Assembly: GCA_045657185.1 (NCBI GenBank)
Contig: JAZOSO010000129.1
Span: forward strand, 1-55,396
Origin: Victivallaceae bacterium
GTDB lineage: Bacteria; Verrucomicrobiota; Lentisphaeria; Victivallales; Victivallaceae
Direction: 5' to 3'
Length of the DNA: 55,396 bases
A model generated the notes under the pieces. That model was not told the DNA's origin and made no database searches. It saw nothing but the letters and a program-made list of their open reading frames with translations. Positions 4,755 through 32,345 of the stretch are shown piece after piece (position 1 is the stretch's first letter; every line of letters starts with the position of its first letter). Position numbers and translations under genes: made by a program.

Positions 4755-4796
4755 AAAAAAAAGTCAGACCTGTCAGATAAAACTGACAAGTCCGAC
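4755..4796 (-). terminator. rho-independent terminator downstream of the 4815..6020 gene
   Basis: On the minus strand, GTCGGACTTGTCAG / loop / CTGACAGGTCTGAC form a 14-nt stem with two wobble or mismatch positions, followed by T8 (the A-run at 4755-4762 on the plus strand). It lies between convergent genes. Confidence 0.6.
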
Positions 4797-4814
4797 AAAT
4801 TAGATCTGTTTTTT

Positions 4815-12954: not shown

Positions 12955-14610
12955 TTACAATTCATATTCTTTCAAGACCTGAGTAATTCTGCGCCATGCT
13001 TCTTTGGGGACACGATGGCTGTCAAGTGCGCCCTTGAAGTTGAAATTTCCGGCTTTGGTTTGAGCTGCACTGCCCGCAAATGTGCGTGCGTCGCAGAACT
13101 GCCAGATAAATGTGCCGCTGAAACGCTCATCTTCAATCACTCTGCGGACAAGTGCTTCATGCAGTTCTGCCTGATAATCTTCGCTCCAACGCTGACCGCC
13201 GCGAAGTCCCGGAATTGCTTCCGCTCCGACTTCACTTATAATAACAGGCTTATTTATATACTGTTCCTGTGAGGCAAATTCAACCAGACCGTCCATGACC
13301 CGTTTAAATTCGGTATGATTCATAAATTCATCTTCATTACCGCTGTACCAGCAGGGATAAGTATTGAATGAAATAACATCAGCGTATTCCAGACATACAT
13401 CTTTCTGTGCTTTGTCAGTGGCAAAAGTAACAGGAGTTGCAGGGTCAACTTCATGCAGAATATCCGCCAATGCTTTAACCAGCGGTTTGGCAGTTTCCAG
13501 ATGAGTTCCGGCTTCATTCAGAAATCCGCGCAAAATTATGCAAGGGTGATTGATTGATGCAAGAGCGGCTTTGCGGGTTTCGCGTTTTTGTTTCTCCTGA
13601 AAATCGGGGTCGGTCAGAGAAAATTCTCTATTGCCCCAGCCGAGAGATTCCTCCCAAATCATCACACCGGTACGGTCGCAAAGGTCAAGGAATTCTTCAC
13701 TCTGCGGATAATGCGAACCGCGGAAGCAGTTTCCGCCGAGCTGTTTCAAAAGCTGCAAATCCTGAACCATAACCGCTGTCGGCACTGCGTAGCCGAAATC
13801 AGGATGTGCATCATGACGGTTGTAACCGATAAGAGTAAGTTTTTTTCCGTTCAAATAAAGTTTACCGTTCTTTGCTTCAACTTTGCGGATACCGAAATTG
13901 CGTTCAAAAACGACCTCCCCGACTTTAATTGACGCATGATGAAGTGCAGGATTTTCGGGTGACCAGAGCTGAAATGCGGGAACTTTGAATTTTGCACTTC
14001 CCTGCCCTGCTGATAACGGCAATTTATTGACAATCAGAGAGTTATCAAAAACGATTTCAGCTTCACTGATATTTTTGATATCACCGTCAAAAATGCAGGA
14101 TATTTCAACTTCGCCGTTATCAATATTTGAAGTGATAATCTTTATTTCACGAGCGAAAACAGTTTCAGCACGTCTGATTACTACCGGACGGTAAATGCCG
14201 CCGTGTGCATAAAAGTCATAATCTCTGCGCCAGAGAGATGAATTACTGTCGTCAAATTGATTGTTTACTGCAAATATAAGTTCATGTTTTCCCTCAACTC
14301 CCGCATTGAAGCGGAAAGTATTTTTTGAGAAAGGAGCGTCGATTTCAGCAACTTTCTTTTTGTCCCAGTAAATATCCGCCCGCAACCCCAAACCTTCGGA
14401 ATAAAGCTCAATTTCACCGCCGACTTCAACAAAAGTCCGGTAACATCCCGTACCGCGCTGCAAAAAATATGTATGACCTGTATCAAAACACCCCGGCACT
14501 GCGGCAATATCATCAAAAATGATTTCCGCAACATCAATTTCAGCAAGCGATTTCCTGCAGAAATTAAAATCCCACATCGACGCCAGCGGGATTTGATTTG
14601 CTTTTTTCAT
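12955..14610 (-). CDS. glycoside hydrolase family 2 (beta-glucuronidase-like)
   Basis: GH2 TIM-barrel motifs are present: NRHDAHPDFGYA, IWEESLGWG, acid/base region RGFLNEAG and nucleophile region VIISEVGAEA. The track ORF runs to 14631, but the ATG at 14610 is preferred because AAAGGA lies 7 nt upstream. 14631 remains an alternative start. Confidence 0.88.
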   Translation of the reverse strand: MKKANQIPLASMWDFNFCRKSLAEIDVAEIIFDDIAAVPGCFDTGHTYFLQRGTGCYRTFVEVGGEIELYSEGLGLRADIYWDKKKVAEIDAPFSKNTFRFNAGVEGKHELIFAVNNQFDDSNSSLWRRDYDFYAHGGIYRPVVIRRAETVFAREIKIITSNIDNGEVEISCIFDGDIKNISEAEIVFDNSLIVNKLPLSAGQGSAKFKVPAFQLWSPENPALHHASIKVGEVVFERNFGIRKVEAKNGKLYLNGKKLTLIGYNRHDAHPDFGYAVPTAVMVQDLQLLKQLGGNCFRGSHYPQSEEFLDLCDRTGVMIWEESLGWGNREFSLTDPDFQEKQKRETRKAALASINHPCIILRGFLNEAGTHLETAKPLVKALADILHEVDPATPVTFATDKAQKDVCLEYADVISFNTYPCWYSGNEDEFMNHTEFKRVMDGLVEFASQEQYINKPVIISEVGAEAIPGLRGGQRWSEDYQAELHEALVRRVIEDERFSGTFIWQFCDARTFAGSAAQTKAGNFNFKGALDSHRVPKEAWRRITQVLKEYEL

Positions 14611-14649
14611 TTTAAAGTCCTTTATTTGCATTTTTTTAACAAATTTAAC

Positions 14650-14753: not shown

Positions 14754-15560
14754 ATGAAAAAGAAAACATTTACCGACTTTGAATTTTCATTGCGGATACC
14801 CAACAATATTTCAGCCTACATCCGTTCAGTCGGTCACTTCAATATCAAAGATATCCAAACCAACAGCATGTGGGAAAAAGCATATTTCGGCGAACTTTTC
14901 TGGTGCATTAACGGTAAAGGGGTATTCTATCTGGATGCTAAAAAATATATTGTCCGTCCCGGCGACATCTGGTATTATCCTGTCGGCAGTAAACATTTTT
15001 ATCATCCGCTTGATGACTATTTTCATTACAGATGGTTTACGATTGAAGGCGAGATGGCAGACTCTCTTTTCAAATCAGTAAACATTTCTCCCGGAATGAG
15101 TTACGGCGGCAAATGTCCTGAAGAACTTTTCGCGCGTCTGGAACTTGATATCAAACAAAGCACATTGAAAAAAAGATTGGAACTTCTCTCTGTCGGCTTT
15201 CAAATTCTATGCTGTGCCGCCGCAGGAGTAAAACAAAAACGCCCCGTCAACAATTATTTGTCCGAAGCCCGCTCAATCATGGATAACGATTTTACAAATT
15301 CAGAACTGAATATTCAAACTCTGGCAAAAATCCTTCATGTCAACCGCGTACAACTGAGCAGAGATTTTGCAACCCACTACGGAGTAACTCCGTCGGATTA
15401 CTTGAAAAATCTCCGTATCCAGAAAGCTGTAAAGTTACTGAAAACAAGCAATCTGCAGCTTAATGCCATCGCCTCCGTCTGCGGTTTCAATTCAGGAGCA
15501 TATCTCGGCAAAGTCATCGCCGCCGGCACAGGCAAAAAAAGTACCGAACACCGCAACTGA
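14754..15560 (+). CDS. AraC family transcriptional regulator (cupin sensor + HTH)
   Basis: 268 aa with an N-terminal cupin-like region (VRPGDIWYYPVGSKHFY) and a C-terminal AraC HTH (LAKILHVNRVQLSRDFATHYGVTPSDYLKNLRIQKAVKLL). It is divergent from the GH2 operon. Confidence 0.9.
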   Translation: MKKKTFTDFEFSLRIPNNISAYIRSVGHFNIKDIQTNSMWEKAYFGELFWCINGKGVFYLDAKKYIVRPGDIWYYPVGSKHFYHPLDDYFHYRWFTIEGEMADSLFKSVNISPGMSYGGKCPEELFARLELDIKQSTLKKRLELLSVGFQILCCAAAGVKQKRPVNNYLSEARSIMDNDFTNSELNIQTLAKILHVNRVQLSRDFATHYGVTPSDYLKNLRIQKAVKLLKTSNLQLNAIASVCGFNSGAYLGKVIAAGTGKKSTEHRN

Positions 15561-15645: not shown

Positions 15646-17142
15646 TTATCCGCAGTGGAAATATTCTTCAACGAGAGCAAGGATTTTTGCCTGGTCGTTG
15701 CCGATATCCTTACGGAGAGTGCGGTCATTGAAAGATTTGAGACCTGCAATGATACCGTCAATCATAGCAGTTGCGAAAACGCCGTCTTTTTCGTAAATTG
15801 CACGCTGTGCTTCAAGACATTCTGCAGAAGCTGCGCAGCTGTCAGGCAGAACGCTCAAACGGTTGAGAACGTCGGCATTTTCAGCTTTGTGAATATTGAC
15901 GTTGACATAAGTTTTTTCTGCAACATCAAGTGAATCAGCCATTTCAAAACCGTGACGGGCGGCAACTGCCAAACCTGCGATAAGCAAATAGACATTGGCG
16001 GAACCGTCGGGTGAACGCATTTCAACAGTCTGTTTCTGAGTTGTATCATATTTAGCAGAAGGTTCACCGGGGTTTGCCTGGCTGCAAAGGTCTTTTTTAG
16101 CGGTCCAGCCGAGGGGTACACGGACGAGGACGGAACGGTTGCGGTCGCCCCAGCAAACGTTGGTCGGAGCTTCCTGATGAGGAACCAGACGGAAATATGA
16201 AGTCGGATTGGTATTGCCGAAAGCTGTAATTGAAGGAGCAAGAGTCATCATACCGGCAATAGCGCGTTTGGCATCATCGGAAAGAACGCCGTCTTTGAGC
16301 ATCTGATTGAAACCGTCTTTGACAACACGGAAGTGAACATGAAGACCGGAACCTGCTTTACCGACAGTGATTTTGGGAGCGAAAGTTACATCCAAACCTT
16401 CCTGATAAGCGAGATTGCGAATAACCCATTTTGCAACAGTGAGCTGTTCTGCGGCTTCTTCGGCATTGACGGGGAGAAATTCAATTTCGTTCTGTTCGTA
16501 AATTTTGCCGTCAAGAGCGAAATTTCCGACTTCAGAATGGCCGTATTTAATTTTGCCGCCGGTGCGTGCGATGTAATTCATGCAAAGCTGACGGAATTCA
16601 CCGAATTTTGCATAAGGTGCAGATTCATGATAACCTTTCTGGTCAACAGCGGGATATGCTTCATCATCGGGAGCGATAACATAATATTCAAGTTCGCCCA
16701 TTGCCTGGAATTCCATACCGGTTGTCTTTTTGAAAGCTTCACATGCTTTGTGCAAAGTGTATTCGGGAGAACTTTCCAGCGGATTGCCGTCTTTGTTGAA
16801 GAAAGAGCAGAGGAAATTCAAAGTAGGCAGTTCACAGAAGGGGTCCATGTAAGCGGTGCGGAATTTGGGGACAACGTACAAGTCACTGTTGTTTGCTTCG
16901 ATGAAGGGGAAAAGGCTTGAACCGTCAACACGTTCACCGCAGGAGAGGATTTCTTCCAGATAATCGCCGTCATTGATGACGAAATTGAGAGTCTTCAATC
17001 TGCCGTCGCCTGCGGGATATTGGAAATTGATATGGCGGATTTCATTGTCCATGATGAATTTGACAATGTCTTTTTTGGTAAAATCTTTGGGGGACTTGCC
17101 GATTTCATCGACAAGACTGCGGAAACTGTAATTTTCTGACAT
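15646..17142 (-). CDS. glnA: glutamine synthetase
   Basis: 498 aa with GS signatures KAGSGLHVHF (GSGxHxH), NRSVLVRVP and ANVYLLIAGLAVAARHG. An AAGGAG RBS is present. Confidence 0.88.
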   Translation of the reverse strand: MSENYSFRSLVDEIGKSPKDFTKKDIVKFIMDNEIRHINFQYPAGDGRLKTLNFVINDGDYLEEILSCGERVDGSSLFPFIEANNSDLYVVPKFRTAYMDPFCELPTLNFLCSFFNKDGNPLESSPEYTLHKACEAFKKTTGMEFQAMGELEYYVIAPDDEAYPAVDQKGYHESAPYAKFGEFRQLCMNYIARTGGKIKYGHSEVGNFALDGKIYEQNEIEFLPVNAEEAAEQLTVAKWVIRNLAYQEGLDVTFAPKITVGKAGSGLHVHFRVVKDGFNQMLKDGVLSDDAKRAIAGMMTLAPSITAFGNTNPTSYFRLVPHQEAPTNVCWGDRNRSVLVRVPLGWTAKKDLCSQANPGEPSAKYDTTQKQTVEMRSPDGSANVYLLIAGLAVAARHGFEMADSLDVAEKTYVNVNIHKAENADVLNRLSVLPDSCAASAECLEAQRAIYEKDGVFATAMIDGIIAGLKSFNDRTLRKDIGNDQAKILALVEEYFHCG

Positions 17143-18363: not shown

Positions 18364-20937
18364 TTATTCAATTTTAAAAACGATTTCTTTTTCCTTCTCA
18401 TCAATTGTCAGCGTCTGTCCGGCATGAAGCTGACCGCTGATAATCAGACGAGATACAGGAGTTTCAAGCATCTTGATAACAGTGCGTTTCAGAGGTCTGG
18501 CACCGAATGACGGATCATAACCGATATCAGCAAGACAACTCTTGGCATTATCCGTAACATGCAATGCTATCTCGTTATTATTAAGCAACTTGGCAAAATG
18601 GTTCAATTGAATATCAACGATATGCAAAATATCATCTTTGCTCAATGCATGAAATATCAATGTCTCATCCACGCGGTTAAGGAATTCAGGTCTGAAGTGA
18701 TGACGCAGTTCAGTCTGCAATTCCTCTCGCAGTTCTCCGGCATTGCCTTTGTTCTCCAGAATAAGACTGCTGCCGAGGTTGCTGGTCATTATGATAATAG
18801 TATTTTTGAAACTGACTGTACGCCCCTGTGAGTCGGTGACAATTCCGTCTTCCAACACCTGCAGCAGGATATTGAAAACGTCACTGTGAGCTTTCTCAAT
18901 TTCATCAAAAAGCACCACTGAATACGGATGACGGCGAACCGCTTCTGTCAGCTGACCGCCTTCTTCATAACCTACATATCCCGGAGGCGCACCGACAAGT
19001 CTTGAAACACTGAATTTTTCCATATATTCAGACATATCAATACGCACCATAGCGCGTTCATCGTCAAAAAGATTTTCAGCCAATGCTTTGGCAAGTTCAG
19101 TTTTGCCGACACCGGTCGGACCGAGAAAGATAAATGATGCAATCGGACGCTTGGGGTCTTTCAATCCTGCTCTGGCACGCAGAACTGCATCGGCAACCGC
19201 CTGAACAGCTTCATCCTGACCGATTACGCGGCAATGCAGATGTTCAGCAAGAGCGAGCAGCTTTTCCTTTTCACTCTGAATAAGTTTACTGACGGGAATA
19301 TGTGTCCAGCGGCTGACAATGGCGGCAATATCCTCTTCATCAACTTCTTCTTTGAGCAGACGGCCGTCCTGATCTTCCTTAATCTTGAGTTCTGCATCTG
19401 CGATTTGCTTTTCAAGTTTGGGAATAACTCCGTGTTTGAGTTCAGCTGAGCGTTCCAAATCATAACTGCGTTCAGCGCGTTCAAGCTGATTGCGGGCAGT
19501 GTCAAGAGTTTCACGCAGAGTGCGCAAATCAGTAATGGCTTTCTTTTCATTATCATAACGGCTGCGGAGAACTTTACCCTCGTCCTGCAAAGAAGCGACT
19601 TCAGCTTCAAGAGCCTCACGGCGTTTGATACTTGCGGCATCTTTTTCTTTTTTGAGACCGGCGATTTCAATTTGCAGCTGCATGACGCGGCGTTCATTCT
19701 CGTCAAGTTCAACAGGAGAACTTTCAATTTCAGTACGCAAAACAGCCGCTGCCTCGTCAAGCAAGTCAATCGCCTTGTCAGGCAGAAAACGATCAGAAAT
19801 ATACTTATCAGAAAGAACTGCCGCGGCAATCAATGCACCGTCACGGATTTTCACGCCGTGATGAATTTCATAGCGTTCTTTCAAACCGCGCAAAATGGAA
19901 ATAGTGTCTTCAACTGAAGGCGGATTGACCAACACCGACTGAAAACGGCGTTCCAATGCGGCATCTTTTTCAATATACTTGCGGTATTCGTCAAGCGTTG
20001 TTGCTCCGATGCAGTGAAGTTCACCGCGTGCAAGCATGGGCTTAAGCAGATTACCTGCATCCATTGACCCTTCAGACGCTCCCGCACCGACAACGGTATG
20101 CAATTCGTCAATAAACAAAATCACCTGACCGTCAGCGGAAGTAACCTCTTTCAAAACCGCTTTCAAACGCTCTTCAAATTCACCTCTGTACTTGGCACCG
20201 GCAATCAATGCCCCCATATCAAGAGCAAGAATACGGCGGTCCTTGAGAGATTCAGGGACATCACCGCGCACTACACGGCGGGCAAGACCTTCAACAATAG
20301 CAGTTTTACCGACGCCGGGTTCACCGATAAGAACGGGATTATTTTTGGTGCGGCGGGAAAGTATTTGAATGACACGGCGGATTTCGTCATCTCTGCCGAT
20401 AACAGGGTCAAGTTTATCCTGTCTGGCAAGCAAAGTCAAGTCTTTGGCATACTTATTCAACGCCTCAAAAGTATTTTCCGGGTCGGGATTATCAACACGC
20501 TGATTGCCGCGGACGCTCTGCAAAGCACTTAAAACTTTATCCGCAGAAATGCCGCTCTGTTTCAAAATTTCCGCCGCTTTGCCGCCGTTTTCCAGAATGG
20601 CAAGGAACAAATGTTCCACACTGACATAATCATCGTGCATGTCAGAGGCTTTTTTCATGGCAGACTGCAAAACCTGCGAAAAATCACGGGACTGATACAA
20701 ATCTGCCGCTCCCTGCACACGGGGAAGTTTACTGATTGCATCATCAACCGAATTGCGGAAAATGGATTTGGACAACCCCATTTTTTCTATGAGAGACGGG
20801 ATAAGACCGTCATTCTGATTTAAAAGAGCATTAAGCAAATGAAGTGATGTAATTTCAGCATTACCGTTTTGCTGTGCGCTCTGCTGAGCCATCATCAATG
20901 CTTCTTTGCTTTTGTTGGTAAACTTTTCGATATTCAT
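18364..20937 (-). CDS. clpB: ATP-dependent chaperone/disaggregase ClpB
   Basis: 857 aa with two AAA+ modules ([15 protein letters not shown] and [15 protein letters not shown]), a long coiled-coil middle domain and a Clp N-domain. Confidence 0.97.
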
Positions 20938-21168: not shown

Positions 21169-22326
21169 ATGAATTTTTTAAACCGTCTCAAACGAAAAAT
21201 ATTTTCTGAACCTCTGCGGCTTTTCATACCGGAAAAAATTTATGCCGCAGTCGGCAAAGAATGTAACATATATTTTGACAACCTTATCACTGCCATTTCC
21301 CCGCAGGATTACTTTTTTGAAGTAAAATGCAAAATCGGACGACTTGAAAAACGCCGCTATACAGTAATTCCGCAAGCAGAAAATATCGGAGAACATCTTT
21401 TGTCAATAAAAATTTATGACAAATTCGGTATGGCAGGAGAAGTGCAGTCAAAGCTTATTGTCAGTCGGGAAATAAGCACGAAGCAAAATTTTTCGCTTCT
21501 CCTTATCGGCGACAGCCAGACTGCGGGCAAAGGCTATCCCGACCAACTCTATCTGCACCTTTCAAAGGAAGAAAATATTACATTCAATATGGTCGGATCA
21601 AACTCAAGCAATTACAGCACTCCCCTCCCCGGCGGAGTTGCGCATGAAGGTTTCGGCGGCTGGGGATGGAATACTTTTTTTACCAATTACAATGTAAATG
21701 CAAGTTCATCAAATGACGGACTTGACCCGTCCCGCCCGTGGCTCAGAGACAGCAGTTTTCTGTTTCCCGACGGAGACAGTTTCAAATTTGATTTTGAGCA
21801 GTATTGCCGGAAATACAATGCCTCAAAATATCCCGAATTTATTATAATTATGCTTGGCACAAACAATATTTTCTGCTGCAAATCCGACAGCGAAGTTGAT
21901 AAAGTATGGGAAACTGAAATTTATCCGTATATGAAAAAAATGATTGATTCTTTCAGAAAATGCAACCCGTCATGTCATATTGCTTTCAATACTCTTGTGC
22001 CGGGAGCATCTTCGCAGGATGCTTTCGGCAGATGCTACGGAGCAAACTACAATATACGCAGATGGCGGCTCAATCTGCATATTTATCATCAGCATTTGCA
22101 GCGTGCGGCAAAAAAAATGAATATTCCGTTAATTCCCGTTCACTGTGCTGTTGACTGCGTTTTCGGTTTCCCGCAGGAGGAAGAATTATTGAATGCCAAT
22201 TCAGACAAAAAGATTTACAGAACAGTCAATGCCGTTCACCCGAACCGCTCAGGATACAACCAGATTGCAGATGCCGTTTTTGCTTATTTAAAACACATTA
22301 TAAGTTCTGAACAGGTTATATCATGA
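21169..22326 (+). CDS. SGNH/GDSL-type hydrolase with an N-terminal Ig-like domain, leaderless paralogue
   Basis: 385 aa with an AAGGAGG RBS. SGNH blocks: LLLIGDSQTAG (I), GFGGWGW (II), IIMLGTNN (III) and NAVHPNRSGYNQIA (V). No signal peptide. Paralogous to the genes at 23359, 24572 and 25786. Confidence 0.88.
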   Translation: MNFLNRLKRKIFSEPLRLFIPEKIYAAVGKECNIYFDNLITAISPQDYFFEVKCKIGRLEKRRYTVIPQAENIGEHLLSIKIYDKFGMAGEVQSKLIVSREISTKQNFSLLLIGDSQTAGKGYPDQLYLHLSKEENITFNMVGSNSSNYSTPLPGGVAHEGFGGWGWNTFFTNYNVNASSSNDGLDPSRPWLRDSSFLFPDGDSFKFDFEQYCRKYNASKYPEFIIIMLGTNNIFCCKSDSEVDKVWETEIYPYMKKMIDSFRKCNPSCHIAFNTLVPGASSQDAFGRCYGANYNIRRWRLNLHIYHQHLQRAAKKMNIPLIPVHCAVDCVFGFPQEEELLNANSDKKIYRTVNAVHPNRSGYNQIADAVFAYLKHIISSEQVIS

Positions 22327-23315
22327 AAAAAATATTTACACTTTTGATTTTACTGTCCGTTTCGGCAGTCTATGCACTCAATTGTTCCGTCTGTGATAAA
22401 AAAATTAAAGGACGTTATCTCAAAAATCAGCAAAATACAGTTTTCTGCTCAAAAACTTGTTTTGCAAGTACGCAGCCCAAATGCACAAAATGCAATAAAC
22501 CGTGTATAAGAATTTACACTTTTATGAAACAAACATACTGTTCGGAAAATTGTGTCAATGCAGTCTCAAAATGTGCAAACTGCAATCAGCCTACTCCGCG
22601 CAGCTGCCGTGTCATTATAAATCCGGAAGGAAAACAAAAACTTTTTTGTCCCGCCTGTGCAGTCAAAAAGCCATGCTATTATTGCTCTTTCCCTATCAGA
22701 ACAACAAGGCTGCCCGACAACAGACATATCTGCAGTGAATGTAAAAAAACAGCGGTAACTTCATTCTCAATAATTCAACAGAAAGTAAAAAAAATACGAC
22801 AAAAATTAAGTCGGATGTACGGTTTTGACCCCAATCACCATATAGAATTGATTGTTCTCAATCTGACTGAACTGGAAAAAGAGTGTCAGGAAATATACAG
22901 CCCCGCCGGCGGCGGACGCATAGCTCTTATGCGGTTCAATTATGTAATCAATGAAAAAAAAGACTTCCGCGGCAGAAAAAAACGCAGTATGTCACAGCAG
23001 AAATGCCGCATATTCATACTCAACAATACACCCGAACATCTCCTCGAAGATGCAATCGCACACGAACTCGCTCACGACTATCTGCGCCACAACACAGGCA
23101 AATACAAAGACCTCGCAATTGAGGAAGGTTTCGCAGAAACTATCGCCGCCGAATATAATAAAGCCGTCAACCGCTCCCATATCAATAACAGAAAAAATAA
23201 TGAAAAAGACCCCGTTTACGGCGGAGGATATCGCAAAATGTCCGAATATATGCGAAAAAACGGTTTCAGAAAAACCGTTCAATTCATCAAAGCCAACTCC
23301 GTTCCGTATTTATAA
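22323..23315 (+). CDS. exported multi-zinc-finger (TRASH/FCS- and LIM-like) protein with a DA1-like HExxH metallopeptidase domain
   Basis: 330 aa. The ATG overlaps the upstream stop (ATGA). A Sec-type leader is followed by four CxxC...CxxC modules, then HELAH (23061-23075) and EEGFAE 16 residues later, as in DA1-like peptidases. Confidence 0.8.
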   Translation: MKKIFTLLILLSVSAVYALNCSVCDKKIKGRYLKNQQNTVFCSKTCFASTQPKCTKCNKPCIRIYTFMKQTYCSENCVNAVSKCANCNQPTPRSCRVIINPEGKQKLFCPACAVKKPCYYCSFPIRTTRLPDNRHICSECKKTAVTSFSIIQQKVKKIRQKLSRMYGFDPNHHIELIVLNLTELEKECQEIYSPAGGGRIALMRFNYVINEKKDFRGRKKRSMSQQKCRIFILNNTPEHLLEDAIAHELAHDYLRHNTGKYKDLAIEEGFAETIAAEYNKAVNRSHINNRKNNEKDPVYGGGYRKMSEYMRKNGFRKTVQFIKANSVPYL

Positions 23316-23321: not shown

Positions 23322-23351
23322 GGCTGTGTTATAAAACTTTATAACACAGCC
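23322..23351. terminator. bidirectional hairpin terminator between convergent genes
   Basis: Perfect inverted repeat GGCTGTGTTATAAA / TTTATAACACAGCC (14-nt arms, tiny loop). Only modest T-runs flank it. Confidence 0.6.
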
Positions 23352-23358: not shown

Positions 23359-24528
23359 TTATTTACCGGAAAGGTATGCTTTAAGGAAACAATACAAAGT
23401 ATCGCCCATTTGGTTATATCCCGCGGGAGCAGGATGTACGCCGTTATTCTGACGCATAATTTTATGAGTATTTTTACCGTTGACGGGCTGAGACTGCAGC
23501 GGGTAATTATTTTCAGTATCAATATTGATATACATAGGAATTACACGCAATTTAAGTTCCTTGCCTTTTTTCAGCAATGCACGGTTGTAGAAATCAAGAT
23601 TTTTGCGATACTGATATGAGGTCTGACCGCAAGCATAACTTTTGCCGAATCCGTCCTGCTGTGCGCCGGGGATATGCTGGAAAATAAACAGTTCAGGTGC
23701 AGGTTTGAGTTTGCGGAATTCAGCAATAAGTTTTTCCATGTTTTCAAGTGATTGAGCTGTTCTTTCCGCAATATTTTCATCTGTGGCAAGAAAGAAATCA
23801 TTAAGTCCGAGCTGAAAAGTCACAATATCAGGTGTATTGCCTTTATTGTGCAGTTTGAAGTATTTCTCAAGGTCAAAAACACCTTTGTCGGGATTTGACG
23901 GGTCGGGAAAAATAAACGGACTGTTTTTGCCGATCGGACGGTCAGGATGCATTCCGTCGTTTTTGTTCTTGCCTCTGAAGCCCCAGCGGGTCAGAAATGA
24001 GTGCCACTTCCAGCCGCCGTAACCTTCATGCACGATGTTTTTCGGGATTTTCACGCCTTTGGGTTCATAGTGGTTTGTGCCGATGAGAGTGACTTCGGGA
24101 TTGTCTTCAGTATTAAAAAGTTCATACACCCGTGCAGGATAAATTGTCGCATTTGTCTGACTTGCTCCGACCATAAGCAGTGAAAGTTTTCTGCCTTTGC
24201 CGGCATCAGCAGGTACAACGATCAATTCAGACTCACCCTGTGCGACTACGCCGTTTTCATTGATTACACGGATTTGCCATTTGTAAGTGCCGACATCCTT
24301 TGCAGTCGGGGTGAAACGCCAGCGTTTGAGGTCATTACGCCCCTTTTTGCAATCAACGTCAAAAACATAATTTGCAGGATTTATTACCGTAACAATATTC
24401 TGAAAATATACATTCATCTCCACTCCCGGAACCGCATAAATCTTCTCCGGCAGCATAAGTTTGACATTCTCTGCAGCATAAATCATACTGCAAAACAGCA
24501 TACATAACAAAAAACTGATTTTTTTCAT
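23359..24528 (-). CDS. secreted Ig-like + SGNH hydrolase paralogue (block I GAS variant)
   Basis: 389 aa with a signal peptide (MKKISFLLCMLFCSMIYA). SGNH blocks: LLMVGASQTNA, GYGGWKW, QLGLNDFF and NGVHPAPAGYNQMG. Confidence 0.9.
   Translation of the reverse strand: MKKISFLLCMLFCSMIYAAENVKLMLPEKIYAVPGVEMNVYFQNIVTVINPANYVFDVDCKKGRNDLKRWRFTPTAKDVGTYKWQIRVINENGVVAQGESELIVVPADAGKGRKLSLLMVGASQTNATIYPARVYELFNTEDNPEVTLIGTNHYEPKGVKIPKNIVHEGYGGWKWHSFLTRWGFRGKNKNDGMHPDRPIGKNSPFIFPDPSNPDKGVFDLEKYFKLHNKGNTPDIVTFQLGLNDFFLATDENIAERTAQSLENMEKLIAEFRKLKPAPELFIFQHIPGAQQDGFGKSYACGQTSYQYRKNLDFYNRALLKKGKELKLRVIPMYINIDTENNYPLQSQPVNGKNTHKIMRQNNGVHPAPAGYNQMGDTLYCFLKAYLSGK
24308..24381. repeat. 74-nt near-identical tract shared with 25494..25567
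   Basis: Hand alignment gives 70 of 74 identical positions, while the flanking coding sequence is much more diverged. Confidence 0.85.
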
Positions 24529-24571
24529 TTTTTTACCTTTTATATTATAAAATTTTTATATACAATATAAA

Positions 24572-25753
24572 TTACTTTTCTGCAAGAATATTTTTAAGCC
24601 ATGCGTAATAGGTATCACCGGCCTGTCTGTAACCTGCAATATCTGCATGAACACCGTTACTCTGTCGGGCGATAATTGTAGAATTATTTGCATTTACAGC
24701 TTCTTTTTTAAACGGATAATTATTTTCCGAATCAATTCCGGCATAAGTCGGAATCAGGATGATTTTCGGGTCTTTATTTTTGAAATGCTTAATCATTGCG
24801 ACAGTCAGAGCAAAGCGGTTTTTATTTTTTCCCCATGAAGTCTGACCGCATTTGTAACTGTTGCCGAAAGCGTCCTGATTGGCACACGGCGGCGGCAGAC
24901 CGACACCGATAATCGCATTCGGAGCATCTTTGCGGAAAACAGCAAGGAGTTTATCGGCATTTTCAAGAATTTTTTTGATTTTTTCATCGCGGTTTGCATC
25001 CGTCAAATGAAAAGCATCATTACCTCCGAGCTGAACTGTAATAATATCAGGATTCGGGAATTTGTAAGTTTTAAGAAAATCCGTCAGACTTAAAGTAACT
25101 TTACCGTCTTTCATATACAAAAATTTGCTTTTGGTATATTTTCTGCCTTTTCTTGCGGGACCGTCCCAGCGGGTCAGGAAAGAATCCCATCTCCAGCCGC
25201 TGTAACCTTCAGTGCGGACTTCTTGGGGAATATTCGCGCCTTTGTATTCAAAGCGGCGTGTGCCGATCATGTTCAATTCGGGAGTGTTATCTTTTTTGCA
25301 AAGTTCATAAAGCCAGGCGGGATAAACAGTATGATTGGTATAACTGTCTCCGACCATGAGAATATTGATTTTTTTGTTTTTGCCTGCATCTGCAGGGGCG
25401 ACATAAATCGTGGTTGATGCTTCGGCGACAAGACCTGTTTCATCATAAACTTTTATTGAGAGCGGGAAAGTTTTGCCGCCGTCCTCAGCTTTAGGGGTGA
25501 AACGCCAGCGTTTAAGGTCATTACGCCCCCTTTTACAATCAACGTCAAAAACATAATTTGCATGATTGACAGCAAGGAAAATATTGCTGAAATAGATATT
25601 ACATTCAATACCGGGGGTGGCATAAATTTTTTCAAACAATACCAGTTTATCCTGTTTAGGCAATTTTTTAACAGCAGCTGAAGTACTGCAGCAGCCGAAT
25701 GTTGACAAAAACAAAACTGAAAATAAAAACAAAAATACTACTTTTTTTGACAT
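24572..25753 (-). CDS. secreted Ig-like + SGNH hydrolase paralogue
   Basis: 393 aa with a signal peptide. SGNH blocks: ILMVGDSYTNH, GYSGWRW, QLGGNDAF and NGVHADIAGYRQAG. Confidence 0.9.
   Translation of the reverse strand: MSKKVVFLFLFSVLFLSTFGCCSTSAAVKKLPKQDKLVLFEKIYATPGIECNIYFSNIFLAVNHANYVFDVDCKRGRNDLKRWRFTPKAEDGGKTFPLSIKVYDETGLVAEASTTIYVAPADAGKNKKINILMVGDSYTNHTVYPAWLYELCKKDNTPELNMIGTRRFEYKGANIPQEVRTEGYSGWRWDSFLTRWDGPARKGRKYTKSKFLYMKDGKVTLSLTDFLKTYKFPNPDIITVQLGGNDAFHLTDANRDEKIKKILENADKLLAVFRKDAPNAIIGVGLPPPCANQDAFGNSYKCGQTSWGKNKNRFALTVAMIKHFKNKDPKIILIPTYAGIDSENNYPFKKEAVNANNSTIIARQSNGVHADIAGYRQAGDTYYAWLKNILAEK
25494..25567. repeat. 74-nt near-identical tract shared with 24308..24381
   Basis: Partner of the repeat at 24308..24381. 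It encodes NYVFDVDCKxGRNDLKRWRFTP on the minus strand. Confidence 0.85.
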
Positions 25754-25785
25754 TTTATACCTTTTAAAATTTTATGTTCGTAATA

Positions 25786-26934
25786 TTATTTTGCTGAAAG
25801 TATATTTTTGAGCCATGCGTAATATACATCGCCCATTTGTCTGTAACCGTCATGATTGGGATGCACTGCATTATTATGACGGGGGACAAGAGTTTTGCTG
25901 TTCATGCTTGCAGGTTCTTTCTTCACCGGGAAATTATTTTCACTGTCAAGTCCGAGGACAAGAGGAATCATGATAATATCAGGATGTTTGGCTGCAAAAT
26001 GTTTCTGCATTTCATTATTCAAATAAAACTGATTTTGAAACCTTAACCATGCAGTACCGCGGCATTTGTTAACTTTACCGAAAGCATCCTGGTCAGCAGC
26101 AGGAGTAATAAAAGCCACACCTATAATTGCATTGGGAATATCTTTTTTGAACGCATTGATAAAAGTATCTGCATCTGCAAGAATTTTCCTGACTTTTTCC
26201 TCACGGTTTTCAGGCACTATATTTGAAATATCATTGACGCCGAGCTGAAATGTAATAACATCAGGTGTAGGCAAATTGTATTTTTTCAGATAATCTGCCG
26301 GACTGATAACGATTTTGCCGTCTTTTTTAAAGAGAAACTTGCTGCTTTTCTTTTCTCCGAAAAGAGTTATAAACCTGTTCCAAGTCCAGCCGGCATACCC
26401 CTCATGTTTGACCTCCGTCGGAAGTTTCTCGCCCCGCGGATTGAAATAACGGGTTCCGACCATGGTCAATTTGGGGTTGCCGGGAGCCTGACAATATTTG
26501 TACAATTGTGCAGAATGAATTGTATAATTTGTCAAACTGTCGCCGATTTGAAGAATGTTGATTTTGCGGTCTTTGCCGGCATCTGCAGGGGCAACACAGA
26601 CCGTTGTTGAGCGTTCAGCGACCAAGCCGTCTTCATCGTAAACTTTGAGAGTCAGCGGAATTTTTTTCCCGCCGTCTTTTTCTGTCGGGACATAACGCCA
26701 GCGTTTAAGGTCGTTTCTGCCTGCCTCGCAATCAACATCAAAAACATAATTGTCATGGTTGATAGTAAGGAAAATATTTTTAAAATAAATGTTACATTCC
26801 ACACCTGGAACGGCATAAATTTTTTCAGGCAGAAACAATCTGTTCTGTTTTTTCAATTTACTGCTGCCGACAGCGGCAGCGGAAAGCAAGCCGCAAATAC
26901 ACAGCATAAAAACTGAAAACAATAATTTTTTCAT
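25786..26934 (-). CDS. secreted Ig-like + SGNH hydrolase paralogue
   Basis: 382 aa with a signal peptide (MKKLLFSVFMLCICGLLSAAA). SGNH blocks: ILQIGDSLTNY, GYAGWTW, QLGVNDIS and NAVHPNHDGYRQMG. It starts 9 nt after the upstream pseudopilin stop. Confidence 0.9.
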   Translation of the reverse strand: MKKLLFSVFMLCICGLLSAAAVGSSKLKKQNRLFLPEKIYAVPGVECNIYFKNIFLTINHDNYVFDVDCEAGRNDLKRWRYVPTEKDGGKKIPLTLKVYDEDGLVAERSTTVCVAPADAGKDRKINILQIGDSLTNYTIHSAQLYKYCQAPGNPKLTMVGTRYFNPRGEKLPTEVKHEGYAGWTWNRFITLFGEKKSSKFLFKKDGKIVISPADYLKKYNLPTPDVITFQLGVNDISNIVPENREEKVRKILADADTFINAFKKDIPNAIIGVAFITPAADQDAFGKVNKCRGTAWLRFQNQFYLNNEMQKHFAAKHPDIIMIPLVLGLDSENNFPVKKEPASMNSKTLVPRHNNAVHPNHDGYRQMGDVYYAWLKNILSAK

Positions 26935-26943
26935 AACAATCTC

Positions 26944-27654
26944 TTACTTATTCCAGTTGATGAAAGCCTGTTCGTCAACATGTTTGTTCCAGTTATTTGA
27001 AGTATTTCCCTCTCTCCAGCCTGTAATATTGCTGGTATCGCCTTTCCACCATTGTACGTGACCGTCAACAGAGAGGACATTTGCTCCGTTGTTATGCGGC
27101 AATTCCATACAATAATTTTCCCCAAGAAGAATAAACGGAGAGGAACCTCCGGGAGAGATTTTTTCAGACATTGACATTGTATCGGACGGACGTTTCAGTT
27201 TGGAAACCTGGCGTGCATATACGAACAACATTTCTTTTGTCTGATCTTTATTTTTACCGCCCGGCATACCATAATTAGTAGTACCGGCAAAAAGGTGTTT
27301 ATTGGCGGCACAGCGGTACGGCTTTCTGTTACCGATATAATAGTAAATTCTGGTAGGCCAACTATGATAATTTTTGCTTGATGTCGCCAAAAATGTCGGA
27401 TCTTCCGGTATCGCAGGTTCAGCCGGATTAAGGTCATCACTTTTTTTTGTATCTCCGTTTGCTCCCGGATAATATTCCTGATTATCAGCGGCATACTGAA
27501 CCAGTCCCAAGTTGAGCTGTTTCAGATTGGAGACACAGGAAGCCTGTCTTGCCTTGTCACGGGCTTTGTTCAATGCAGGCAAAAGCATACCTGCAAGGAT
27601 GGCAATAATAGCGATAACAACGAGCAATTCAATCAATGTGAAAGTCTTTTTCAT
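26944..27654 (-). CDS. prepilin-type N-terminal domain protein of the H-X9-DG family (pseudopilin-like)
   Basis: 236 aa. N-terminus [35 protein letters not shown]; C-terminal [12 protein letters not shown] (H-x9-DG). An AGGAG RBS is present. Confidence 0.9.
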
Positions 27655-27669
27655 ACCTTTTCTCCTGTT

Positions 27670-28386
27670 TTATTTATTCCAATTACAAAAAGCTTCATTC
27701 TGTAAGCGCATACTGTATTCAGGCTTGCTGCTATTAGGATTCGGCCATCCTTCTGCATCGCCGATTTCGCCCTTCCACCATTTTACATGACCGTCAACGT
27801 AGGAAGCATTTGCCCCGTTATTGTGCGGATGTGCAGTGATATAATAATTTTCACCCATAATGTACCATGAAGAACCGTCAAAATTTTTCTCGGAAAGCAC
27901 CATAGTTTCAGACGGGCGTTTGAGAGTGCGTATTTTTCTCGGCATATAAAAAAGGTCTCCTGCCAGTTTTTTTGATGCATCATAATTTGAACCTGCGACC
28001 ATTCCGTAATTGCATGTTTTTACCTTCAAAAACGGATTTGCATCACATTTGAAAACCTTGATATTGTTAACATAGTACCAGATACGGTCGGGATAACCGG
28101 GAGCCCATTCTTCTTTGCTGGCTTTTTTCAAAAATTCAGGAAATTCGGGAAGCGGAGCTTGCGTTTTTGGCATTCCCATACGCATACCGTCAAGAGCAGG
28201 ATACCAGTCAGCATTATCATCCTGATACATGGTAAGTCCGTTCTGAAGATTTTTCAGATTTGAGGTACATGAAGCCTGTCTGGCTTTGTCACGGGCTTTG
28301 CCCAATGCAGGCAAAAGCATACCTGCAAGAATGGCGATGATGGCGATAACTACAAGCAATTCAATCAGTGTGAAAGCCTTTTTCAT
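27670..28386 (-). CDS. prepilin-type N-terminal domain protein of the H-X9-DG family (pseudopilin-like)
   Basis: 238 aa. N-terminus [35 protein letters not shown]; C-terminal [12 protein letters not shown]. An AAGGAG RBS is present. Confidence 0.9.
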
Positions 28387-28397
28387 ACCTTTTCTCC

Positions 28398-29681
28398 TTA
28401 TTGGTTGAAATCAGGTTTATCTGAGGTTATATCTTTCAAGGCAATATTGTTACAATTTTTAGTTCTGAATGAATACAAATATTTTTCACTGGCTTTTGAC
28501 CAGTCAATGCGGACTTTTTCAAAGCATGAGTCTGCAACCCACTCCAAATGGAATGCTTCGGGGGGAGCATTATTTCTGAAAGCCCGGTAAATTTCTTCTT
28601 CACGCACATCCTCACCGCCGGAATATTCAAAATTTACATTATTGAAATACAAACGCTTGAGCGGATAACCGGGATTTCCCTGAATAAGACTGCCCCAGAC
28701 AGCTTTGCCGCTGATATTGGTAAATTCAATATCATTCATGCGCTGATCTTCAGGTTCAACAGGACCGCTGGTACAGCTTTGCAAAAAGAACGGACGATTA
28801 CATTCCATAATAATATCATGGAATTTGATTTCACTGATATCCGCACCGGTATAATTGCCGTGTCCGTATTTACAGACTGCACAAATCGCAGTTCTGCTCT
28901 CATGGATGACAAGGTTTCCGAATTCAGCACGACGGATAATGCCGGAACCGACACCGACACGGATAGCGTTGCAGCAGGTTTTCAAAATGCAGTTGCTGAC
29001 CACCACATCTTCGCAAACACGGGTCTGGTCCTTGAGTTGTTTCAAGTCTGCACGCAGCGTGATACAGTCATCACCGGTATCAATAATGCAGTCGCTGACC
29101 GTTACACGGCGGCAGCAGTCAATGTCGATTCCGTCACCGTTGCGGGTGCGCCATTCGGTAAAAATTTTCAAACCTCTTGCACTGACATCTTCACAGCCGT
29201 GGAAAAGCAAACTCCAATAAGGTGCATTGACAAGTTCAACATCACGAACTGTAATATGGTCGGATTCAACAAAATAAATCATCTGGGCAGGACGCCATTT
29301 GTCAATTTCATATTTTCCGCTCGGCAGCGGTGTATGCTGGAAAAATTTGCGGCTGCCGTCAATCGTACCGTCACCGGAAATAACAACATGTGTAACTTCA
29401 ACACCGCAAATAAGATGCGCGCCTGAAGCCTCTTCATGCGGACGGGGACGATTCTGAACGCAGAAATCATCTGCATTGTAATCAGCGGGATTGCCGCTTG
29501 CGACAATTTTTGCACCCATTTCCAAATGCAGACCGCCGTAACTTTTCAAATACAGCGTACCTGTAAGATAAGTTCCGGGCGGGAAATTTACAACTCCGCC
29601 GGCATCAATCGCCCGCTGAATAGCAGCGGTATCCATTGTCACGCCGTCACCGACGGCACCGAAATCTTTTACATTTATCAT
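28398..29681 (-). CDS. right-handed beta-helix glycoside hydrolase, GH28-like with an atypical active-site region
   Basis: 427 aa. The N-terminus [29 protein letters not shown] is a pectate_lyase_3-type start. RNGDGIDID and DTGDDCITL correspond to the GH28 NTD and GDD motifs. No signal peptide. The ATG overlaps the upstream stop (ATGA). Confidence 0.75.
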
Positions 29682-31297
29682 TTATAAAGCTCCTTTAAAC
29701 CTTTTACTGTTGCATCTACAAGTTCCTGACCGCCTTTAGAGCTTACAGGACTCTGATTGAGTGTTGCGGAGTAACCGCGGTTTTTCTCTGCGCGAGCAAT
29801 CGGCAGATAACTGTGTGATTCAGTCATTTTATTTCTGTGTTTAATACCGGAAAGTTCAACGACAAAAGTCTGAACAAACGGACTTCTGCCCTGAATGCGG
29901 TGCATATAATCCATAAACAGCTCAAAAGCATTACTTGCAAATGCGATATCTCCGACACGGACAAGATTGGCTTCAGAAGCAAATTTTCCGCCTTTTTTGT
30001 AATGCTCTGCACGGGCAAGAGTCACTTTTGCGTTGTCGATTGCTTTGGTACGGTTGAAATTGAATTCGCCGCGTTCCATGAGAGTTCCGTCAGTTTTGTA
30101 CGGAACTTTTTTGTATTTTTCAAGAGTTGCCTTTGCTTTCGCCACTATATCAGCGGGAATCGGAGTGGGTGTAAGTTCAAGATTCAGATGCTTATAACGC
30201 AAAACGGCTTCGCTCTGTTTGGATTTTGAAGCCCATTTGAGAGTATCCTCAAAGATATTGACAATGCGTTCAGCCATATCCATGCACTGGGCCTTCTTGT
30301 ATGCAATAACCTTATCCCATCCTTCGGGCATACCTTCGTATGAACATGCTGCAGCGTAATCGTTCAGGATTTTTTCATCATATTTCATAGCGATACGGCG
30401 TTTCTCCGCCTCTTTGTAATGCACCTGGAAAGGTATTGTATCCCCTGCCCCTGAAACCTGCGGCAGAATATAAACTCCGGTATATTTCTTTTTGAAAATT
30501 TCACGGACATCATGCCAGAAATCGCTGGTATATTTTCTCATATGTCCTGAATACATTTGCGAGGTTACGGAAGCATTGATAATGCAGCCGGTCAATTTGT
30601 CATTCATATCGTATGTGAAAAGGAAATTCATGAAATTTTCAGAACCGCTTTCCCAGCCTTGAAATTTATCATCATCGGTTTTGCCGAGGATAACTGCGTG
30701 ACCGGCATGGGGAATTGTACTGCCGTACTGACCTTGGGGCCGTTTGGACAAATCATCAGCATAAACATTGCGGCGGTTGAAAGATGTTGCCCCCAAACCG
30801 TAACCGTAAGCAATTTTACCTTTTTTGCGGCTTGCCCATGCTTTTTTAGCAGAAATTACAACTTTTTCCGCAACAAAATCGCGAATGTCATCGCTATCCA
30901 TCAACCCCAAATCAGCAGGCACACCTTTCATCGGATAGTAAATGTTGATTGAACTGTGAGTATGGGTCGCATTGATAAAAAATCTGTCTGCCGGAAGTTC
31001 GGGAGCAATTTTTTTGGCAAGCTCACGAACTCTGCCGGGAATATCTCTGGGATTGATAATATCGAGAGAAACAAAAATAACTGATTCTTTGCCGTTGTCC
31101 AGCACAAGTGTTGTCGCATAAATCGGGTCAATAATCCCCTTTGACGGACGGAAATAACCGTAACCGGGCATGATACTGTTTTTTCCGGGGTCAATGGATT
31201 CCATTGCCCAGCCGATTTTCAGCGGAGCTTTTTGAGCAAAAGCCGAGATACATGCACCTATAACAGCACATACTAACAAAATTTTGTTTTTTTTCAT
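29678..31297 (-). CDS. secreted protein with a neutral-ceramidase-N-terminal-like domain
   Basis: The preferred start is MKKNKILLVCAVIGACISAFA (ATG at 31297, AAGGGA RBS); the track ORF extends to a TTG at 31339. The pattern GWAMESIDPG..MPGYG....SKGIIDPIYATTLVL...ESVIFVSLD...NATHTHS resembles the ceramidase N-domain (memory-based). Confidence 0.75.
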   Translation of the reverse strand: MKKNKILLVCAVIGACISAFAQKAPLKIGWAMESIDPGKNSIMPGYGYFRPSKGIIDPIYATTLVLDNGKESVIFVSLDIINPRDIPGRVRELAKKIAPELPADRFFINATHTHSSINIYYPMKGVPADLGLMDSDDIRDFVAEKVVISAKKAWASRKKGKIAYGYGLGATSFNRRNVYADDLSKRPQGQYGSTIPHAGHAVILGKTDDDKFQGWESGSENFMNFLFTYDMNDKLTGCIINASVTSQMYSGHMRKYTSDFWHDVREIFKKKYTGVYILPQVSGAGDTIPFQVHYKEAEKRRIAMKYDEKILNDYAAACSYEGMPEGWDKVIAYKKAQCMDMAERIVNIFEDTLKWASKSKQSEAVLRYKHLNLELTPTPIPADIVAKAKATLEKYKKVPYKTDGTLMERGEFNFNRTKAIDNAKVTLARAEHYKKGGKFASEANLVRVGDIAFASNAFELFMDYMHRIQGRSPFVQTFVVELSGIKHRNKMTESHSYLPIARAEKNRGYSATLNQSPVSSKGGQELVDATVKGLKELYK

Positions 31298-31360
31298 TTT
31301 TTCCCTTTTAAAATTTGAAATATTTTCTGACATTATCAAAAAAAAATTGTTATCAATATA

Positions 31361-31389
31361 ATTATAATCTATAAATTCAAATTATGCAA
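31361..31389 (-). promoter_or_regulatory. near-consensus sigma70 promoter for the locus 2 operon
   Basis: On the minus strand: TTGCAT (31384-31389), a 17-nt spacer, then TATAAT (31361-31366). Confidence 0.55.
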
Positions 31390-31399
31390 GTCAAAAAAC

Positions 31400-31449
31400 A
31401 TGGATTTTTGCATCATTATATGTAATTTTGAGTCATTAAATGGATTTTT
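31400..31449. promoter_or_regulatory. direct repeat ATGGATTTTT x2, a candidate AraC operator
   Basis: ATGGATTTTT occurs at 31400-31409 and 31440-31449, exactly 40 nt apart. Further GATTTT(T) copies lie at 31453 and 31463. The repeats are upstream of the minus-strand -35. Confidence 0.3.
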
Positions 31450-31460
31450 AGTGATTTTGC

Positions 31461-31489
31461 TTGATTTTTTCAGACAATTATGCTATACT
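31461..31489 (+). promoter_or_regulatory. sigma70-type promoter (extended -10) for the AraC gene of locus 2
   Basis: TTGATT (31461-31466), a 17-nt spacer, then TGC-TATACT (31481-31489). The same TGCTATACTA decamer occurs at the locus 1 AraC promoter. Confidence 0.45.
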
Positions 31490-31514
31490 AAAACATAATC
31501 AAGGAGCCGATATC

Positions 31515-32345
31515 ATGGACGAAAAAAAATTCCCGAAAAGTTTTGCCTCATTACCGCAAATTCATTATATGGCATTAGCTGATTTTTCCCTGAATTACCG
31601 TGAAGAATGGCACAACTCACATTACAACGATTTGATATACATTATTTCAGGCAGCATGACTATAATTATGCCAGGTGTTGAAGAGTTGGAATACCCCGTC
31701 AATCAGGGCGAAGTTTTTCTGATGCAGAGCAATGTTAAACATAAAGATATTTTCAAGTTGCGCAAAGGGTTGAAAGCACTGGTTATTTCATATCTCTGGG
31801 ATGGTGACAAAGACTATCTGCCGCCGGAAACTCCGTTCCGTAAATTTGCAGCTGATGAACTGCTCGAAGTGCGCTGGATTCTTGAACGTATCCGTGAAAA
31901 CTCTATCGGAACAAAACCGAAATCAGATATTTCTTTTATCCAGCAAAGCCGCCTGCATACAATATTACTGCTGCTGTACAACCTCATGAACGACAATTTC
32001 ATTGAGCGTCAGGACAGAGTATTGACATACAGACCCGAATCTTTGCTTAAAGCTGCGCAATACTATATCCAATGCAATTATGCCACTCCGAAACTCAACC
32101 GCACACAAGTCGCTAATGCACTGTCCGTGAGTGTAGCAACACTCACACGGGCATTTGACCGCTGTTCAGGCTATTCCTTTGTAGAGTATTTGACCAATGT
32201 CAGACTTGAAGCTGCACAAAGAATGCTGCGCAACCGCAGCTGCCGTGTCAGCGAAGCCGCAATCAACTGCGGTTTTACCGATGCCGGCTATTTTACCAGA
32301 GTGTTCAAAAAAGCTTTCGGAGTCTCCCCGATAGACTTTCGCTGA
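31515..32345 (+). CDS. AraC family transcriptional regulator (cupin sensor + HTH)
   Basis: The ATG at 31515 lies 7-8 nt after an AAGGAG RBS; the track ORF starts at an upstream TTG. The C-terminal AraC HTH reads VANALSVSVATLTRAFDRCSGYSFVEYLTNVRLEAAQRML ... GFTDAGYFTRVFKKAFGVSP. Confidence 0.9.
   Translation: MDEKKFPKSFASLPQIHYMALADFSLNYREEWHNSHYNDLIYIISGSMTIIMPGVEELEYPVNQGEVFLMQSNVKHKDIFKLRKGLKALVISYLWDGDKDYLPPETPFRKFAADELLEVRWILERIRENSIGTKPKSDISFIQQSRLHTILLLLYNLMNDNFIERQDRVLTYRPESLLKAAQYYIQCNYATPKLNRTQVANALSVSVATLTRAFDRCSGYSFVEYLTNVRLEAAQRMLRNRSCRVSEAAINCGFTDAGYFTRVFKKAFGVSPIDFR

Follow-up and report, generated by a model that had tools for sequence, protein, structure and literature searches.

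In plants, DA1 peptidases play an important part in regulating the size of organs and seeds. The LIM, LIM-like and peptidase domains of DA1 were defined by Dong et al. 2017 (PMC5322733), its active-site motif HEMMHX15EE was validated by mutation, and the C274Y exchange was found to abolish both ubiquitylation and activity (PMC5322733). The same authors, citing Burroughs et al. 2011, noted that the LIM-like region of DA1 is highly similar to bacterial (Roseiflexus) proteins (PMC5322733). A survey calls DA1 "plant-specific" (PMC4007552). This plant specificity is outdated, as bacterial homologues show. Here we describe one of them, encoded by a gene at positions 22323-23315 (plus strand, stop codon included) of contig JAZOSO010000129.1 from a Victivallaceae bacterium (assembly GCA_045657185.1); the whole stretch analysed, of 55,396 nucleotides, is called the window.

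The gene encodes a protein of 330 residues with a leader, four consecutive four-cysteine modules and a C-terminal peptidase domain. Considering all of the evidence together, we find it reasonably likely that this is an orthologue-level bacterial DA1-like LIM-peptidase exported through Sec, and that the SGNH hydrolase gene overlapping its start is a mere neighbour. The family to which it belongs has already been recognised computationally; what makes it interesting above all is that nearly all members of this LIM zinc-finger protease family carry a secretion signal.

Assignment to the DA1-like family

A Pfam search using the protein returned DA1-like (PF12315) as the sole significant family, with a score of 32 bits against the gathering cut-off of 25 (E = 1e-7), and PF12315 also matched all 23 of the 23 aligned homologues. 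We compared the bacterial alignment with an alignment of 12 plant DA1/DAR1 proteins, including Arabidopsis DA1 (AtDA1; "DA1 protein [Arabidopsis thaliana]"), using hhalign. The two aligned over 294 columns with a probability of 99.5% and an E-value of 7.7e-23, and residues 19-323 of the query were collinear with residues 170-525 of AtDA1, which comprise the LIM, LIM-like and peptidase span. A pairwise BLASTP comparison with AtDA1 gave an E-value of 4e-7 at about 20% identity. The cysteine pairs C84/C87, C109/C112, C118/C121 and C137/C140 align with DA1 C232/C235 through C294/C297, and C118/C121 corresponds to C271/C274. A preliminary description made from the sequence had proposed a DA1-like peptidase preceded by zinc fingers, and this assignment is upheld by the Pfam score, the profile comparison and the HExxH-X15-EE spacing common to both groups. 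The HELAH region does not point to SprT, M48 or another family either, Pfam listing DA1-like alone for the protein. Among the homologues, Peptidase_M1 (3 of 23) and DUF6782 (2 of 23) also matched, more weakly than DA1-like. A search of NCBIfam with the protein found no family.

The protein matches 24 database proteins, the best with an E-value of 4.8e-182. Invariant positions in the alignment of 23 sequences are C54, C57, C109, C112, C118, C121, C137, C140, H247, E248, H251, E268, G269 and a VYGxG block, while C84 and C87 are nearly invariant. Because the homologues reach such E-values and the cysteines and active-site residues are conserved, the open reading frame (ORF) represents a real gene and not a chance product. 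The alignments show that the protein keeps every residue that a gluzincin active site would need, together with the eight cysteines of the LIM-like domain that plant DA1 requires. In total it contains 20 cysteines (21, 24, 42, 46, 54, 57, 61, 73, 77, 84, 87, 95, 109, 112, 118, 121, 137, 140, 188 and 228), and its isoelectric point is 9.6, i.e., it is basic. The ORF, the leader, the four cysteine modules, the HELAH and EEGF motifs and the ATGA overlap with the upstream gene were all recovered where the preliminary description had placed them.

Peptidase domain

The predicted gluzincin-type peptidase domain spans residues 143-330 (22749-23312, plus strand) and aligns with DA1 298-525. The whole-protein AlphaFold2 (AF2) model reached a predicted local distance difference test score (pLDDT) of 91.2 and a predicted template-modelling score (pTM) of 0.81; the model of the peptidase domain alone reached 92.2 and 0.88, respectively. 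In the domain model, an N-terminal helix/beta-sheet part is followed by the helix with HExxH, the Glu helix and a further three helices. In the whole model, HELAH (residues 247-251; 23061-23075, plus strand) lies on the helix formed by residues 238-257 and EEGF (residues 267-270; 23121-23132, plus strand) on the consecutive helix formed by residues 264-281. HELAH is predicted to supply two zinc ligands and the catalytic glutamate; its invariant residues H247, E248 and H251 align with HELAH of M1 aminopeptidase N and HEMMH of DA1. The EEGFAE sequence starts at E267, 16 residues past H251, giving HELAH-X15-EE with E267-E268 as the final pair. Against M1 aminopeptidases of the PDB, the family profile matched its HExxH...EEGFA block to the zinc site HELAH...NEGFA (E = 1.3e-4), placing the invariant E268, next to the invariant G269, on the glutamate of NEGFA in aminopeptidase N. 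This alignment makes E268 the probable third zinc ligand and the protein a probable gluzincin of clan MA(E). A further family signature, DPVYGGGYR (residues 296-304; 23208-23234, plus strand), is located in the C-terminal helical subdomain and aligns with SPVYGDGFR of DA1, with V298, Y299, G300 and G302 invariant.

A Foldseek search of the peptidase domain model against the PDB revealed no solved structure resembling it (best E = 0.12) and no zincin above noise, PprI ranking 25th with a TM score of 0.28. The gluzincin fold therefore rests on the motif and profile alignments. A single-sequence PDB search with the protein gave an insignificant match only (3cmn, E = 0.59), and the PDB copy searched contained no solved DA1 structure.

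Distribution of the family

An exhaustive profile search over 1.84 billion cluster representatives (clusters at 50% identity) yielded 3,932 proteins with E <= 1e-3, of which 468 reached E <= 1e-30. Relatives are encoded in 237 stretches of a species-representative genome set. Among the best 80 of these 237, almost all belong to Lentisphaerota/Victivallales, including Victivallis vadensis DSM 14823 (L036) and the complete genome of strain zth2 (L051); a few are from Delongbacteria and Verrucomicrobia, and one is from a Bacteroidia metagenome-assembled genome (MAG). Most named hosts are anaerobes of gut, rumen and sediment. Looking up the clusters of ten distant representatives extended the list of taxa by no more than "Verrucomicrobiota" and "CSSED10-310". 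One ruminal Victivallales MAG (L075) carries two DA1-like genes in tandem, at 3560-4540 and 4656-5672. A DA1-like fragment (P0097) assigned to a MAG labelled "Candidatus Nanoarchaeia archaeon" probably reflects a binning error and not an archaeal member.

In NCBI, members are named "protein DA1" or "LIM domain-containing protein", and one relative is named "M1 family metallopeptidase". The architecture had initially been described as eukaryote-type. In view of the roughly 3,900 prokaryotic clusters, the "protein DA1" names and the bacterial homologues mentioned by Dong et al. 2017 (PMC5322733), it is neither eukaryote-specific nor new. Our literature searches on the function of any bacterial member found none and returned plant DA1 papers only.

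Zinc-finger modules

The four cysteine modules are spaced x2/x17/x3, x2/x15/x3, x2/x21/x2 and x2/x15/x2. They pair into a first LIM-type double zinc finger at residues 21-77 (C21/C24/C42/C46 and C54/C57/C73/C77; 22383-22553, plus strand), which aligns with the LIM domain of Arabidopsis DA1 (170-228) and with LIM proteins in the PDB, and a second, LIM-like double zinc finger at residues 84-140 (C84/C87/C109/C112 and C118/C121/C137/C140; 22572-22742, plus strand), which aligns with the DA1 LIM-like domain. The Pfam LIM model (PF00412) did not match the protein at E <= 1 and matched 5 of the 23 homologues (best E = 9.4e-10). The protein is missed because its finger spacing is non-canonical: the first domain has C-x3-C, and the linkers between fingers measure 7 and 5 residues, compared with the canonical 2. 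A Foldseek search of the whole model against the PDB gave tandem LIM proteins as the only significant matches, with PINCH1 LIM4-5 (E = 7.8e-5) followed by LMO2 and FHL2; only the LIM part of the model was matched. Profile alignments matched residues 19-80 to the LIM domain of DA1 and to LIM domains in the PDB, and residues 20-144 of the family profile to the tandem LIM domains of LMO4 and Lhx. Based on the LIM matches of the homologues, the structural matches and the profile alignments, the four modules therefore probably constitute two binuclear LIM-type domains.

A TRASH/FCS signature had been read earlier into the first module, and a protein with MYM-type metal-sensing or trafficking fingers as modules 1-2 in place of a LIM domain would indeed share some features with ours: the motifs F41-C42-S43 and Y72-C73-S74, as part of F-C-S-x2-C and Y-C-S-x2-C, and the C-x3-C spacing resemble zf-FCS/TRASH, and zf-FCS matched 1 of the 23 homologues (E = 0.004). 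However, neither PF06467, PF24900 nor a related model matched the protein significantly, TRASH_ZMYM4 giving only 10.2 bits against a cut-off of 27 (E = 0.78), in hhalign these two modules fell on DA1's canonical LIM domain, and the LIM matches of the homologues and the tandem LIM structures point the same way, so we have dropped the TRASH/FCS reading as highly improbable. The number of N-terminal fingers varies between relatives, which carry from 5 to 16 CxxC motifs each, whereas the second, LIM-like domain, adjacent to the peptidase, forms the invariant core. Two relatives, P0104 (645 residues) and P0123 (728 residues), are finger-only proteins in which the finger array matched five to six times and no HExxH is present.

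Leader and export

The protein begins with MKKIFTLLILLSVSAVYA|LN, in which residues 1-18 (22323-22376, plus strand) represent a predicted Sec signal peptide with a predicted cut after A18. Export was judged heuristically, by sequence rules and family conservation. The leader comprises a basic n-region (M-K-K, with K2 and K3), a hydrophobic core of about ten residues (IFTLLILLSV) and the segment SAVYA|L with V-Y-A at -3 to -1, which, together with its conservation across the family, agrees with the Sec-type leader first proposed for this protein. Because no [LVI][ASTVI][GAS]C lipobox is present in the leader, a lipoprotein was ruled out. The AF2 confidence is lowest in this segment (pLDDT 62-67). 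A hydrophobic segment precedes the first CxxC in 141 of 152 full-length representatives, 125 of these 141 having a net positive n-region, and an AXA-like site is located 3-6 residues ahead of the first finger cysteine in 181 of 219 relatives, with positions -7 to -3 rich in alanine. Acidic residues directly follow the leader in several relatives, e.g., P0020 and P0027. Two distant relatives (P0024 and P0080) combine an N-terminal leader with a C-terminal transmembrane (TM) helix and a basic tail; by the positive-inside rule, the body of these proteins should therefore lie outside the cell, and they are probably anchored at the C-terminus. With a leader conserved throughout the family, the LIM zinc fingers probably work outside the cytoplasm.

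Several observations weigh against the explanation that we prefer. The first 18 residues of the predicted mature protein have a net charge of about +4, which is atypical for Sec substrates of E. coli. The 15 residues behind the hydrophobic segment carry +4 compared with +2 in the n-region, and in 43 of the 141 relatives this flank likewise exceeds the n-region in basicity. Cys4 zinc sites are unusual outside the cytoplasm, where the cysteines could form disulfides instead. In addition, the peptidase domain lacks a solved structural counterpart, as described above, and the adjacency to the SGNH gene, with its 4-nucleotide overlap, is kept in four lineages, so that some coupling is possible.

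The charge distribution would suit a protein whose body stays in the cytoplasm, the hydrophobic segment either inserting N-out/C-in or being no targeting signal at all, and the Cys4 fingers binding zinc in a reducing compartment like eukaryotic LIM domains; to our knowledge, all characterised LIM domains are intracellular. We regard this as very unlikely, since the n-region is basic in 125 of the 141 relatives, acidic residues stand just past the leader in many of them, the hydrophobic core is too short for a TM helix, the relatives with a C-terminal TM helix and basic tail fit the positive-inside rule only with the body outside, and the leader resembles those of the secreted SGNH paralogues at the same locus. 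If the protein is exported, its cysteine modules might alternatively be disulfide-stabilised knots, i.e., zinc-free structural repeats. Exported proteins with clustered cysteine pairs are usually disulfide-bonded in bacteria possessing DsbA/DsbB, and the 20 cysteines are even in number. The modules nevertheless align residue for residue with genuine zinc-binding LIM domains and keep the ligand spacing strictly, and the named relatives are mostly anaerobic Lentisphaerota of gut, rumen and sediment, habitats whose anaerobes often lack disulfide formation in the envelope; disulfide knots thus seem quite unlikely. A third alternative concerns the fate of the leader, which may be an uncleaved signal anchor (N-in/C-out) holding a periplasm-facing protease at the membrane surface for the processing of membrane or periplasmic proteins. 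The predicted cleavage site lies only 2-5 residues from the first zinc-ligand cysteine in most relatives, which could reflect such a tether, the extra C-terminal TM helix of two relatives would be in keeping with it, and Burroughs et al. 2011 reportedly describe LIM domains of prokaryotes as partners of membrane-associated peptidases. However, a hydrophobic core of about 10-15 residues is short for a stable TM helix, and the conserved alanine-rich c-region with small residues at -3/-1 is what signal peptidase I expects. An anchor is therefore unlikely, and we continue to prefer a cleaved leader on an exported, zinc-binding LIM-peptidase.

Relation to the overlapping SGNH gene

A leaderless SGNH/GDSL hydrolase gene (Pfam Lipase_GDSL) lies directly upstream at 21169-22326 on the plus strand, and the ATG of the DA1-like gene at 22323 overlaps its TGA stop codon in the 4-nucleotide sequence ATGA. 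The encoded hydrolase has no hydrophobic leader, unlike its three downstream paralogues on the other strand. A hidden leader was considered and rejected, because the ORF already begins at the first start codon past a stop and the orthologues are leaderless too. A perfect palindrome with a 13-bp stem (GGCTGTGTTATAAA...TTTATAACACAGCC; 23322-23351) is located between the convergent DA1-like and first downstream SGNH genes and is likely a bidirectional terminator closing the SGNH/DA1-like two-gene unit. Since the two genes overlap and this hairpin follows, they are probably co-transcribed here.

The overlap had led to the proposal that the leaderless hydrolase and the peptidase are translationally coupled and act as one functional unit. 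In favour of this, the genes do overlap at ATGA, one promoter-like site precedes the SGNH gene, the DA1-like gene is followed by a hairpin, and leaderless SGNH orthologues (48-62% identity) stand directly upstream of the DA1-like gene in the loci L086, L087/L088 and L001/L007, whose DA1-like proteins are 63%, 60% and 54% identical to that of the window, respectively. In these loci, the SGNH orthologue is located between a divergent clpB and the DA1-like gene. However, the pairing is confined to four close lineages. It is absent in equally close relatives, namely L006/L089 (57% identity, clpB directly upstream) and L090 (54% identity, a Metallophos gene upstream), as well as in L091, L002-L005 and L008-L085, and no SGNH gene was found within 6 kb in the remaining approximately 75 loci. 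When the three genes flanking the DA1-like gene on either side were clustered across approximately 66 loci, no neighbour family was present in more than 7 of them, and a conserved operon partner was rejected. A leaderless hydrolase and an exported peptidase would also occupy different compartments, and the promoter count equals the shuffle expectation. Because the pairing is local vertical synteny, missing from equally close and from distant loci, a functional unit is not supported and appears hardly likely. The adjacency would instead be a vertically inherited feature of a small sub-clade, with the SGNH gene being a neighbour and not a required partner of the DA1-like peptidase.

Wider locus

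The clpB gene of the window (18364-20937) lies divergently upstream of the SGNH gene, and the order clpB/(SGNH)/DA1-like/SNF-transporter is a synteny block common to the closest relatives. As SGNH is present in some and absent in other relatives, it was presumably gained or lost in a lineage-specific manner. Farther upstream are a glycoside hydrolase of family GH2 (12955-14631), an AraC regulator (14754-15560) and a glutamine synthetase (15646-17142). Downstream, a cluster at 23359-32345 on the minus strand looks like a pectin/rhamnogalacturonan-type utilisation operon. It contains the three leader-bearing SGNH paralogues (23359-24528, 24572-25753 and 25786-26934), two DUF1559/N-methyl pseudopilin-like genes (26944-27654 and 27670-28386), a GH28 glycoside hydrolase (28398-29681) and an unannotated ORF of 553 residues (29678-31339), all on the minus strand, and a divergent AraC-type regulator (31461-32345).

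Proposed mechanism

The leader would act as a cleavable Sec signal peptide cut after A18, releasing a mature protein of about 36 kDa that works in the periplasm or beyond. This protein may bind five zinc ions, four structural and one catalytic, the last held by H247, H251 and E268 with E248 as the putative general base. The invariant LIM-like domain beside the catalytic domain could be an obligatory structural or latency module, as in DA1, whereas the N-terminal LIM-type fingers, which vary in number, may be peptide- or partner-binding modules that select exported substrates. The enzyme would thus perform endoproteolytic processing of exported proteins. As an account of the whole bacterial DA1-like family, we put forward only tentatively, as a possibility somewhat short of even, that its members are proteases exported through Sec in which the LIM and LIM-like fingers fold outside the cytoplasm and bind zinc there, serving as substrate-selection or latency modules. 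If this is true, these would be the first extracytoplasmic LIM domains, and the family could be the prokaryotic ancestor of plant DA1, which would have lost the leader and gained ubiquitin-interacting motifs (UIMs).

The almost universal presence of a secretion signal on these Cys4 zinc-finger proteins raises the question of how, and whether, zinc fingers assemble in the bacterial envelope. The compact 330-residue homologue contains exactly the LIM, LIM-like and peptidase core, with a high-confidence model, and could be a tractable system for studying how a LIM-like domain controls an active site. The relatives in the cultured V. vadensis and in the complete-genome strain zth2 favour such use.

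Comparison with known systems

The closest characterised counterparts are the plant DA1/DAR proteins (Arabidopsis DA1, At1g19270, PF12315). Both share a collinear LIM, LIM-like and peptidase region, the HExxH-X15-EE motif, a LIM-like domain with four CxxC pairs, among them the counterpart of C274, and the signature PVYG(D/G)G(F/Y)R. Plant DA1 has two N-terminal UIMs and is activated by ubiquitylation, whereas the bacterial protein has neither UIMs nor an N-terminal extension. There is no room for UIMs because the first finger starts at residue 21, right after the leader. Without UIMs, ubiquitin switching is impossible, and the protein is therefore a DA1-like LIM-peptidase and not a DA1-type ubiquitin receptor. 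It further differs from plant DA1 in its Sec-type leader, which predicts another compartment, and in the non-canonical spacing of its first LIM domain, which escapes the Pfam LIM model.

The eukaryotic tandem LIM proteins (LMO2/LMO4, PINCH, FHL2 and Lhx) resemble residues 19-144 in having two consecutive binuclear treble-clef domains and provide the best structure and profile matches for this region. Unlike them, the bacterial fingers use cysteine for all ligands (no His or Asp), have linkers of 7 and 5 instead of 2 residues, are fused to a protease and are preceded by a secretion signal. With the M1 gluzincins (aminopeptidase N and leukotriene A4 hydrolase), the protein has in common the active-site block HExxH...(N/E)EGFA, amounting to only about 40 residues; it lacks both the N-terminal domain of M1 enzymes and an ERAP1-like C-terminal domain, we saw no GAMEN exopeptidase motif in it, and Foldseek gave no significant match. 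The prokaryotic LIM metallopeptidases of Burroughs, Iyer and Aravind 2011, as they are reported by Dong et al. 2017 (PMC5322733), belong to the same family and have the same architecture, with nothing essential differing at that level of description. Within this family, the protein described here belongs to the Lentisphaerota/Victivallales clade, which is marked by two finger pairs and by C-x3-C spacing in the first pair.

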